NCBI GenBank assembly: GCA_030614005.1
Contig: JAUWKS010000006.1
Span: 30,001 to 62,000 of the forward strand
Source: Candidatus Heimdallarchaeota archaeon
Lineage (GTDB): Archaea; Asgardarchaeota; Heimdallarchaeia; JABLTI01
Direction of reading: 5' to 3'
DNA: 32,000 nt
Shown here: in pieces, positions 4,220-5,608 of the stretch
Layout: each line of letters starts with the position of its first letter
How positions within the stretch are numbered: the stretch's first letter is position 1
The notes under the pieces: generated by a model
Database searches by the model: none
What the model saw: only the letters and a program-made list of their open reading frames with translations
What the model was told of the DNA's origin: nothing
Made by a program: the position numbers and the translations under genes

Positions 4220-4726
4220 TTATTGAGATAGACTTTTCACATCTATTTTCATTTTTACTACTCTGCCATATCCTTCATCTAATTCTTCAAGAATGTCTCT
4301 TACAATCATATCGTTTACTTTGTCACGAATGATTCGTCTCGAAGCAGTTCCTCTTTCTTGTTTTACTAAGGCTGTCAGCTGAGAAATATTCTTTGGACCT
4401 TCTCGAGTTAAAACATCTACAATTAGCCTTTCTATAGCATCAAGATTTACATCAGGACGTAATCGCATAATCCACTTTGAAGGAGAGAATAAAGTTGCAA
4501 CATTTGTTACTTCCTGGAATGTTCGTAATAATGCAAGGGTCATATTGAGTGATCCAGTGGCATCGTGCAAATCAGGACTTATCTTATCAATTTTGCTCTC
4601 TAGTTCAGATATTCTTTCAATTGTCTTGTCTAATTTATCATTCAGAATAGTAAGAGCTCCAAGATTAATTGTTTGCAATTGCTCTTTTTTCTCGTCGTTC
4701 TGTTTTTCTTTATCTGACATAGACAT
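4220..4726 (-). CDS. Coiled-coil plus C-terminal winged-helix protein, putative transcriptional regulator
   Basis: C-terminus LIVDVLTREGPKNISQLTALVKQERGTASRRIIRDKVNDMIVRDILEELDEGYGRVVKM fits a wHTH pattern; N-terminal heptads (LNDKLDKTIERISELESKIDKI). Start is likely ATG 4726 or 4720 rather than 4762. Confidence 0.7.
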   Translation of the reverse strand: MSMSDKEKQNDEKKEQLQTINLGALTILNDKLDKTIERISELESKIDKISPDLHDATGSLNMTLALLRTFQEVTNVATLFSPSKWIMRLRPDVNLDAIERLIVDVLTREGPKNISQLTALVKQERGTASRRIIRDKVNDMIVRDILEELDEGYGRVVKMKIDVKSLSQ

Positions 4727-4798
4727 TTGCCTGCCTTCATTACAAGTTGAAAGACGGTTCAATTTACAGTTTAGTATACTTTACTTACACATTTCTGA

Positions 4799-4812
4799 TA
4801 TTTAAACCTTTT
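4799..4812 (-). promoter_or_regulatory. BRE/TATA promoter of the wHTH gene
   Basis: Minus strand reads AAAAGG-TTTAAATA, a canonical archaeal BRE+TATA arrangement. Confidence 0.55.
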
Positions 4813-4821
4813 ATTATTAGT

Positions 4822-4867
4822 GAAAACCCCTAAGAGTTTTCCAATAGAAATCCACTGCCTAGGATTT
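4822..4867. repeat. Two tandem 6-8-6 inverted repeats
   Basis: GAAAAC-ccctaaga-GTTTTC (4822-4841) and AAATCC-actgccta-GGATTT (4848-4867). Confidence 0.35.
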
Positions 4868-4871
4868 TAGC

Positions 4872-5240
4872 TCACAAAATTATGGTTGAAAAGTTCTTAA
4901 ATTTCTTTCCAGTCTTTTTTTTTGATTCAGCTATTTCAATCTCGTCTTCTTCGTTATCTGTTTTTCCTTTGCTAATTCTAACCATTTTGATAAGACCAAC
5001 CACGCTGCCATAATCGTAGAGCATAGATCTGTATTTTCTAGCAAAAATTCTGGCATCTTTTCTTGGCATACCACTTTTAACCATTTTACGTTGGGTACGG
5101 ATCTTGATTATTTCTCTTCTGATTGGTAAAACAATCAATCTTGGTAAAATTACAAAAGTAAATAATATGCATAACCAGAAGAATTGTAATGCGATAATAA
5201 ATATATTCGCTGTAATTTTCCAAAATCTACAACGTGCCAT
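4872..5240 (-). CDS. Hypothetical basic protein with one N-terminal hydrophobic/TM segment and a GMP...KY motif
   Basis: 126-aa ORF in the track (TTG 5252 or ATG 5240). Hydrophobic IFIIALQFFWLCILFTFVILPRLIVLPI followed by RKMVKSGMPRKDARIFARKY. Confidence 0.7.
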   Translation of the reverse strand: MARCRFWKITANIFIIALQFFWLCILFTFVILPRLIVLPIRREIIKIRTQRKMVKSGMPRKDARIFARKYRSMLYDYGSVVGLIKMVRISKGKTDNEEDEIEIAESKKKTGKKFKNFSTIIL

Positions 5241-5281
5241 AAAAAAACACAACCTGCCTTCAATAAAACAATTGTTGAGGG

Positions 5282-5608
5282 TTAATCCTCATATTTCTTT
5301 TTGGTATCGATATTGATATTTTGCATTGCTTTTCCTATGATATTGATTGAATCTGCGTATTTATTGACCATAGCTTTAACCATATCTTCTGGTAATCCTT
5401 GCTCTGTCAGAGTCTTGTAGATTGTTCCAATTCCTAAGGCAAATTGCTCTGCTGTATCAGCTGAGTACAATGCATTGAGTAATCCCTTTATTAATCCTGG
5501 AATTTCTTGATTGATTACTCCAAAGAGTTCTTTAATATCTTCGATAGGGATATCATCGCTTACTTTCTCAATTGTGATTCGTTTTTCCTTCTTTTTTTCT
5601 TCGGACAT
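5282..5608 (-). CDS. Hypothetical acidic helical protein with a GLP...KY motif
   Basis: 108-aa ORF with an AGGTGA SD upstream; contains YKTLTEQGLPEDMVKAMVNKY. Confidence 0.8.
   Translation of the reverse strand: MSEEKKKEKRITIEKVSDDIPIEDIKELFGVINQEIPGLIKGLLNALYSADTAEQFALGIGTIYKTLTEQGLPEDMVKAMVNKYADSINIIGKAMQNINIDTKKKYED

Follow-up and report, generated by a model that had tools for sequence, protein, structure and literature searches.

The Psp response (PspF, PspA, PspB/PspC) places a regulator gene beside a small operon whose soluble helical and single-pass membrane proteins feed back, and its regulon is small. In ECF sigma/ZAS (zf-HC2) operons, a regulator is encoded together with small cognate partners. 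We know of no sigma factors in Archaea, of very few archaeal circuits followed from regulator to operator to regulon, and of none in Asgard archaea, the closest prokaryotic relatives of eukaryotes.

The window (the whole stretch of 32,000 nucleotides analyzed here) has a low G+C content of about 0.33 and holds a module of three genes, A, B, and C, whose closest protein relatives carry the source name Candidatus Heimdallarchaeota. This module is built from an undescribed protein family, with a newly defined candidate operator and regulon: searches of the full-text literature, Pfam, and solved structures found no description of A, B, the triad, or the element described below. All three ORFs lie on the minus strand, flanked by GatE (2274-4211, plus strand) and a divergent gene for a 378-aa membrane protein (5803-6939, plus strand). 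The features are:

4220..4726, minus strand: gene C, 168 aa from the ATG at 4726; helical hairpin and winged helix
4798..4812, minus strand: BRE/TATA-like block (AAGGTTTAAATAT) between B and C, kept in 9/9 aligned genus-level loci
4872..5240, minus strand: gene B, 122 aa from the ATG at 5240; basic, with an N-terminal hydrophobic helix
5282..5608, minus strand: gene A, 108 aa; acidic, soluble, three helices
5655..5692, minus strand: 38-bp element TGGTCAC-N24-GTGACCA, for the A-B unit a candidate operator and promoter core

The ORFs of B and C as listed run from 4872 to 5252 (126 aa) and from 4220 to 4762 (180 aa), and relatives place the likely ATGs at 5240 and 4726. An earlier note on this DNA, made from the sequence alone, had reported three ORFs that are indeed present at the positions it gave. 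Its size for A (108 aa) stands, and the 126 aa it gave for B is likely to be 122, from the start codon shared with relatives.

By analogy, the module seems to work most like an ECF sigma/anti-sigma operon or the Psp system, and to belong to neither. As in ECF sigma/ZAS operons, the regulator is encoded with small cognate partners, the promoter of the partners is probably under the regulator's own control, and distant A-family proteins are the third gene of such operons. The module differs from them because C is a winged-helix protein and not a sigma factor, B has no zinc-finger anti-sigma domain, and the bacterial operons have no B-like gene. Pfam and NCBIfam searches of A, B, and C gave no sigma70 region 2 or 4, zf-HC2, or other anti-sigma domain. 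With Psp it shares a similar logic (a regulator, a soluble helical partner, and a small membrane partner) but no sequence relationship, and A consists of three short helices instead of a long coiled coil. The same databases gave no match to PspA_IM30 (E<=1) or to an AAA+ enhancer-binding domain in any of the three proteins. Finally, C folds at its C-terminus like the MarR/TrmB/ArsR/BlaI-MecI regulators, and relatives of C give sub-threshold matches to HTH_27, MarR, TrmB, HTH_5, and Penicillinase_R. Unlike these regulators, C carries a long N-terminal helical hairpin and would work with a 31-bp half-site spacing, and the module has no ligand-binding or sensor-protease partner.

To define how widely the module is distributed, we used a sample of 300 Asgard genomes, which are interrelated, so that co-occurrence counts overstate independence; C, A, and B were each found in about 100 of them. 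All three occur in 10/10 genomes of the window's family (f1) and in the single f28 genome. For C, A, and B, respectively, the counts were 23, 26, and 24 of the 28 genomes in f2, 54, 52, and 54 of the 76 in f11, and 10, 11, and 7 of the 19 in f17. Family f11 corresponds to Thorarchaeota, as identical proteins are named Candidatus Thorarchaeota at NCBI. No C, A, or B was found in f3 (0/11) or f4 (0/21), and the 68 genomes of f14 gave three marginal matches to module genes. A single phyletic pattern, covering two Heimdall-class families, Thorarchaeota, and two more families, is common to the three genes.

Thermoplasmata MAGs carry the triad as well. Within the Heimdall class the genes run in the order A-B-C, and the surroundings are of two kinds: the triad of the window's family sits, syntenically, between GatE and the S13-S4-S11 ribosomal-protein genes, and in a second Heimdall-class lineage it lies in an unrelated neighborhood. 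In Thorarchaeota, f17, and the Thermoplasmata MAGs the order is C-A-B. B always comes directly after A, and their stop and start codons sometimes overlap. A-B-C is a module that moves as a unit and is kept across several archaeal lineages. The co-occurrence that the earlier note had proposed to check is therefore real, with the three genes staying linked across lineages and changes of gene order. It had also mentioned similar triads in other archaea, such as Thermococcales and Bathyarchaeia: triads were verified in Thermoplasmata MAGs and Thorarchaeota, and the one record labeled 'Bathyarchaeia' looks like a member of the Heimdall group.

This distribution bears on a first alternative, a toxin-antitoxin or defense cassette in which B would be a membrane toxin, A its acidic antitoxin, and C the regulator. 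Small, oppositely charged partners, one of them membrane-active, beside a DNA-binding protein are what such a cassette would look like, and the earlier note had offered a toxin-antitoxin-like option. We regard it as highly improbable. The module is single-copy in its own genome, vertically inherited, fixed in position beside GatE and ribosomal-protein genes, and distributed family by family without patchiness. Moreover, C is the most conserved of the three proteins (67-94% identity over many MAGs), and the element of the A-B promoter marks housekeeping-type genes elsewhere in the genome. Searches for known toxin or defense families point the same way: none of A, B, and C reached Pfam or NCBIfam thresholds; PADLOC had no match to A or B and, for C, just a weak one of the Csa3 wHTH type (E 0.004); and PHROGs gave nothing for A or B and no meaningful match for the module.

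A and B were said by the earlier note to be paralogues, from an ungapped alignment of 29 residues (A 64-92 against B 50-78) in which we find exactly the five identities it named. Taken alone as a pair, the 5/29 match is not above chance. BLASTP of A against B gave an E of 0.19, and a better ungapped 29-mer with eight identities exists, itself equaled in 154/300 shuffles. Profile comparison of close relatives only gave a probability of 5% (P 0.008), and the signal became decisive only once Thorarchaeota and Thermoplasmata members were included. With 29 A and 26 B sequences, hhalign reached a probability of 95.1% and an E of 3.1e-8 over 45 columns, with the same G-[LIM]-P...Y hairpin at their center. 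When 50 distant relatives of A were aligned instead, the values were 96% and 4.8e-9. The A/B profile score was 49.8, against 11.2 for reversed B, at most 14.6 for 30 column shuffles, and at most 13 for C compared with A or B.

Since the family profiles match over about 45 residues while shuffled controls fail, A and B are, on this profile evidence, true but distant paralogues, which upholds the claim at the level of families. What they share, as far as the alignments tell, is a helix-G-[LIM]-P-helix hairpin, and the likeness probably extends to the preceding helix, which is rich in small residues. In six-frame searches of whole genomes, the B profile matched, besides B itself, gene A alone, in dozens of genomes. 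The product of the third gene in Thorarchaeota has an A-looking motif (F-Y-K-T-L-x3-G-I-P-E-E) and matches both the A and B models.

At the protein level, A has a whole-protein pI of 4.9, and its model shows three short helices (pLDDT 76.8 overall, 98 over residues 60-80, which form the hairpin). The conserved hairpin is a helix-G-L-P-helix with Y64, L67, G71, P73, and Y84 invariant. An exhaustive profile search of 1.8 billion proteins returned 277 representative relatives at E<=1e-3, nearly all of about 80-160 aa, and no Pfam family for any of them. Foldseek of the A model found no significant match in the PDB (best E 1.4) and, among AlphaFold DB clusters, only unnamed or uncharacterized proteins (E 1.5e-3 or weaker). 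The ESM Atlas returned only 'hypothetical protein' clusters with scores below 0.9, the commonest taxa being Bathyarchaeota, Thermoplasmatota, and Bacillota, which are to be read as leads only.

B has a hydrophobic helix at residues ~9-39 and, after a basic linker, a G-M-P hairpin resembling that of A; its charged tail is poorly conserved. Its pI is 10.5, and all B proteins are basic (pI 9.7-11.9). The contrast in charge and hydrophobicity that the earlier note had described was reproduced: the net charge of the aligned segment is -1 in A and +7 in B, the pI 4.9 against 10.5, and the hydropathy maximum (Kyte-Doolittle, 19-residue window) 0.88 against 2.70, the latter at residues 13-31 of B. The first helix is strongly hydrophobic in B of the Heimdall group and in most non-Asgard (Thermoplasmata-type) members. 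By hydropathy profile, the B-like proteins of Thorarchaeota have no clear transmembrane helix, with maxima of 0.7-1.6 versus 1.9-3.1 in other B proteins. Because this first helix is only weakly hydrophobic in Thorarchaeota, membrane anchoring of B is, as judged from hydropathy, lineage-specific and not general; the membrane tethering suggested by the earlier note is thus unsupported as a general feature.

Among the distant relatives of A are longer bacterial proteins whose N-terminus is a charged coiled coil, and some of these have additional copies of the hairpin. The homology of these bacterial-type relatives to A was found at E 2e-12 to 7e-7 among 1.8 billion proteins. In 5/5 examined cases –all those with available context, drawn from two or three lineages at least– genes for an ECF sigma factor (regions 2 and 4_2) and a zf-HC2 anti-sigma factor come first and the A-like gene third, although the zf-HC2 match is weak in one of the five. 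In all five, the anti-sigma stop codon and the start of the A-like gene overlap, and such overlaps are typical of stoichiometric partners. No B-like gene follows the A-like gene in these operons, so A can apparently work with unrelated partners.

C was described by the earlier note as a coiled-coil-wHTH gene, and its model (pLDDT 70.7) has a disordered N-terminus of acidic and basic residues, a long helical hairpin at residues 22-79, and a winged helix at 97-160, where pLDDT is 83-90. This last region is modeled as a three-helix bundle with a beta-hairpin wing, that is, a winged-helix fold. The best solved matches by Foldseek are the DNA-binding domains of Fur, PerR, MarR, and BlaI/MecI, with an rmsd of 2-3 A over 75-85 residues and E values of 6e-3 or higher. 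Sequence searches against the PDB gave coiled-coil noise only. C and 24 relatives all fall below the gathering scores of MarR (PF01047), HTH_27 (PF13463), TrmB (PF01978), HTH_5 (PF01022), and Penicillinase_R (PF03965), their best Pfam wHTH matches being sub-threshold at 15-22 bits.

The most constrained parts of C are the recognition helix, whose motif R-G-[TS]-A-S-R-R-I is invariant across classes, and the N-terminal hairpin. As this hairpin is among the best conserved parts within the family, its conservation suggests a protein-binding surface. C may also have its own promoter in this genus, as suggested by the BRE/TATA-like block between B and C. The block is missing in two loci (L017 and L004) where B and C abut.

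The 38-bp element ends 46 nt upstream of the A start, with a TATA-like ATATATT just 5' of the gene-proximal arm and its arms 31 bp apart from center to center. In an alignment of the region upstream of A from 12 loci of the window's family, it is kept amid diverged flanks. Of the 33 fetched loci that cover this region (the window's family, the second Heimdall lineage, and Thorarchaeota), 31 have the exact element 30-90 nt upstream of A, and the remaining two have it with two mismatches. The f17 loci carry it with one changed base in the distal arm (7/7 inspected). No element was found at the Thermoplasmata triads. In Thorarchaeota the element lies between C and A, and therefore it belongs to the A-B unit and not to C; a search for palindromes upstream of gene C in that lineage gave TATA-like boxes only.

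The own genome has seven exact copies of the element, each with a 24-nt spacer in a search that admitted 18-32, against a chance expectation of ~0.04 estimated from base composition and none for a reversed-pattern control. Across the 300 genomes, the exact element was found in 9/10 genomes of f1, 17/28 of f2, 54/76 of f11, and 1/68 of f14, at 1-7 copies per genome. It was absent from all other families that lack the module, and controls gave 0 in every genome. Within f11, C and the element are both present in 49 genomes and both missing in 17, with five and five discordant; A and B are nevertheless present in three of these ten.

C is probably the factor that binds the element. This assignment draws on the winged helix, on a recognition helix that is invariant across classes and matches the invariant arms, on a phyletic pattern that C and the element have in common, and on their physical linkage. 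We considered it unlikely that another factor binds the element, or that the element is a special promoter class, with C regulating something else or being no transcription factor at all but, for example, a winged-helix protein-protein adaptor. Winged helices do also serve as protein-binding modules, the Thermoplasmata triads have no element, and the element might be bound by some other factor whose phyletic pattern is the same. Such a factor would have to account for an element that follows the phyletic pattern of C down to the genus level within f11 and is physically linked to the module in four families, and for the match between its invariant arms and the invariant recognition helix of C.

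Several genes lie behind copies of the element. An MFS_1/MFS_3 transporter of ~480 aa starts 22-43 nt after it in the window's family and three f2 genomes. A different MFS gene adjoins the module in f2-type loci; we compared it with the element-marked MFS gene of the own genome as a candidate orthologue and rejected it. Also behind the element, in three genomes of the window's family and two of Thorarchaeota, is the gene for a GNAT-domain protein (437-486 aa, motif E-L-W-P-G-G-F), and this element-marked protein shows 34-37% identity between the Heimdall group and Thorarchaeota. In the own genome, one copy is followed by a TldD-type peptidase gene, and another has a gene for peptidase M28 ~550 nt downstream. 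Several copies there precede only a short ORF or no clear gene, and since the downstream gene is ambiguous for these, the regulon list is provisional.

In the reading that we propose, and to which we give nearly an even chance, the element is bound by C, and A and B form a co-regulated partner or anti-regulator pair of C. The two winged-helix heads of a C dimer would bind the two arms of TGGTCAC-N24-GTGACCA, and the long helical hairpin could space these heads 31 bp apart. The arms would flank the TATA region, both at the A-B promoter and at a small number of further promoters. The regulon would then consist of A-B, the GNAT-fusion protein, the MFS exporter-type transporter, the TldD-type peptidase, and a handful of genes without a known function. 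A and B would bind each other, the N-terminal hairpin of C, or both, and the output of the regulon would feed back on C, as the anti-sigma factor and antagonist do in bacteria. In the Heimdall group, membrane-anchored B might be a sensor or tether.

A regulatory link between the A-B pair and the winged-helix protein is consistent with the bacterial A-like genes behind ECF sigma/anti-sigma genes and with an element whose palindromic arms fit a winged-helix dimer. That A and B act on C, and not only downstream of it, is quite possible but falls short of an even chance. The argument for it comes from the A-like genes in sigma/anti-sigma operons and the strongly conserved half of C that does not bind DNA. 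Complex prediction of A, B (36-100), and C (19-168), with C as the partner, scored 0.00, a 'no answer' that is neutral on binding.

In the main rival reading, C is a dedicated local regulator and A and B are the main effectors of its regulon, never touching C. They might, for example, be two helical proteins, one soluble and one associated with the membrane, that protect or remodel this membrane, or that deal with a toxic compound alongside the GNAT enzyme and the MFS exporter. In every Asgard lineage it is the A-B promoter that has the element; C has a separate promoter in Thorarchaeota and, probably, in this genus. A regulator beside its target is the usual layout, which A and B as main effectors explain just as well, and the other element-marked genes are enzymes and transporters. 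Even the bacterial A-like genes could be cargo of sigma-factor operons. Despite these points, we find this reading possible but rather doubtful. The bacterial A-like gene overlaps the anti-sigma stop codon in 5/5 operons, as stoichiometric partners do, and A and B, both helical and very small, show none of the features of enzymes or transporters. Besides, the best-conserved N-terminal hairpin of C suggests a protein-binding surface.

The partner reading has a broader form. The A/B hairpin might be an ancient cross-domain adaptor that controls transcription factors, namely ECF sigma/anti-sigma pairs in bacteria and a winged-helix factor in archaea. The Asgard 38-bp operator would then run a small, conserved stress-type regulon (the GNAT-fusion enzyme, the MFS exporter, and peptidases). 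We hold this broader form to be somewhat unlikely. If true, the module would be an archaeal counterpart of sigma/anti-sigma/antagonist signaling, with an operator unchanged between the Heimdall-group and Thor lineages.

The analysis supplies a candidate regulator, an exact candidate operator, 7-9 genomic sites, conserved target genes, and two partner proteins of an undescribed family. Testing the circuit takes recombinant proteins and synthetic DNA, and no culture of the organism. The partner of the A/B hairpin domain, once found, would also explain an unannotated component of bacterial sigma-factor operons.

Two further copies of the element at one mismatch bring the own-genome set beyond the exact ones, and all copies there are intergenic. 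The element can be oriented by its inner features, a YCCA-like block by the distal arm and ATAT by the proximal arm.

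At the level of gene neighborhood, the module (the acidic soluble protein A, its basic paralogue B and the winged-helix protein C) shares an intergenic region with a membrane-protein gene on the opposite strand. We list here this gene and two conserved non-coding blocks:

Window 5803-6939, + strand: multi-pass membrane protein of 378 aa with a soluble C-terminal domain, transcribed divergently from the module
Window ~5729-5747: conserved block TTCAAAAAACTTTTGGA, in the intergenic region common to the module and the 378-aa membrane-protein gene
Window ~4763-4789, - strand: second conserved non-coding block, between the BRE/TATA-like block and the start of C

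The membrane protein had no Pfam match, and its place beside the module is kept in the window's family, with 381 aa in locus L001 and 385 aa in L002. In loci L004 and L042, from other lineages, the upstream neighbor of the module is a different membrane protein, which carries a zinc ribbon at its C-terminus. The block ahead of C contains a TGTAA direct repeat (copies ~15 nt apart) and is kept in nine loci of the genus.

L002 (GCA_035528035.1) is labeled Candidatus Bathyarchaeia. It displays the same synteny as the window (GatE, C-B-A, the membrane protein and S13/S4/S11), and its proteins present 62-77% identity to those of the window. This label probably stems from an error in binning or classification.

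L042 is a metagenomic contig, and the nearest relatives of its C protein are those of Thermoplasmata MAGs. Its C-A-B triad is followed by a convergent Peptidase_M50 gene (L042:3658-4314, - strand) and then by a gene for an M50-PDZ protein, an arrangement observed in one case. The Peptidase_M50 match, of the site-2 protease type, scored 27.4 bits (cut-off 27.2). In bacteria, proteases of this type cleave membrane anti-sigma factors.

Regarding the candidate operator upstream of A (TGGTCAC-N24-GTGACCA, 38 bp), in the Asgard family f17 the distal arm is preceded, at a distance of 6-7 nt, by an extra GTGACC half-site in the C-A intergenic region (L070, L073, and L076). This brings the number of half-sites to three or four, an arrangement that hints at higher-order binding. 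A further copy of the element was located elsewhere:

G000:C36:23037-23074 (locus L045, 1501-1538): element copy between two convergent genes

Downstream of this copy there are only short ORFs of 33-40 aa, and it may control the expression of a small protein or of a non-coding RNA.

Most genomes of f2, the second Heimdall-class family, harbor a second, unlinked A-like match, for example:

G026:C1:2416455-2416736: second A-like match
G045:C202:20216-20524: second A-like match
G097:C133:7244-7537: second A-like match

In many f2 genomes, this match contains one in-frame stop (TAG, TAA or TGA); possible explanations are a paralogue in decay, a pair of short genes or a site of recoding.

Finally, for P0283 and P0284 (in the cluster of P0122) and P0307, some sources give the name 'PleD family two-component response regulator' to an A-family protein, a name that no domain match backs; its C-family neighbor goes under the name 'ArsR family regulator'.
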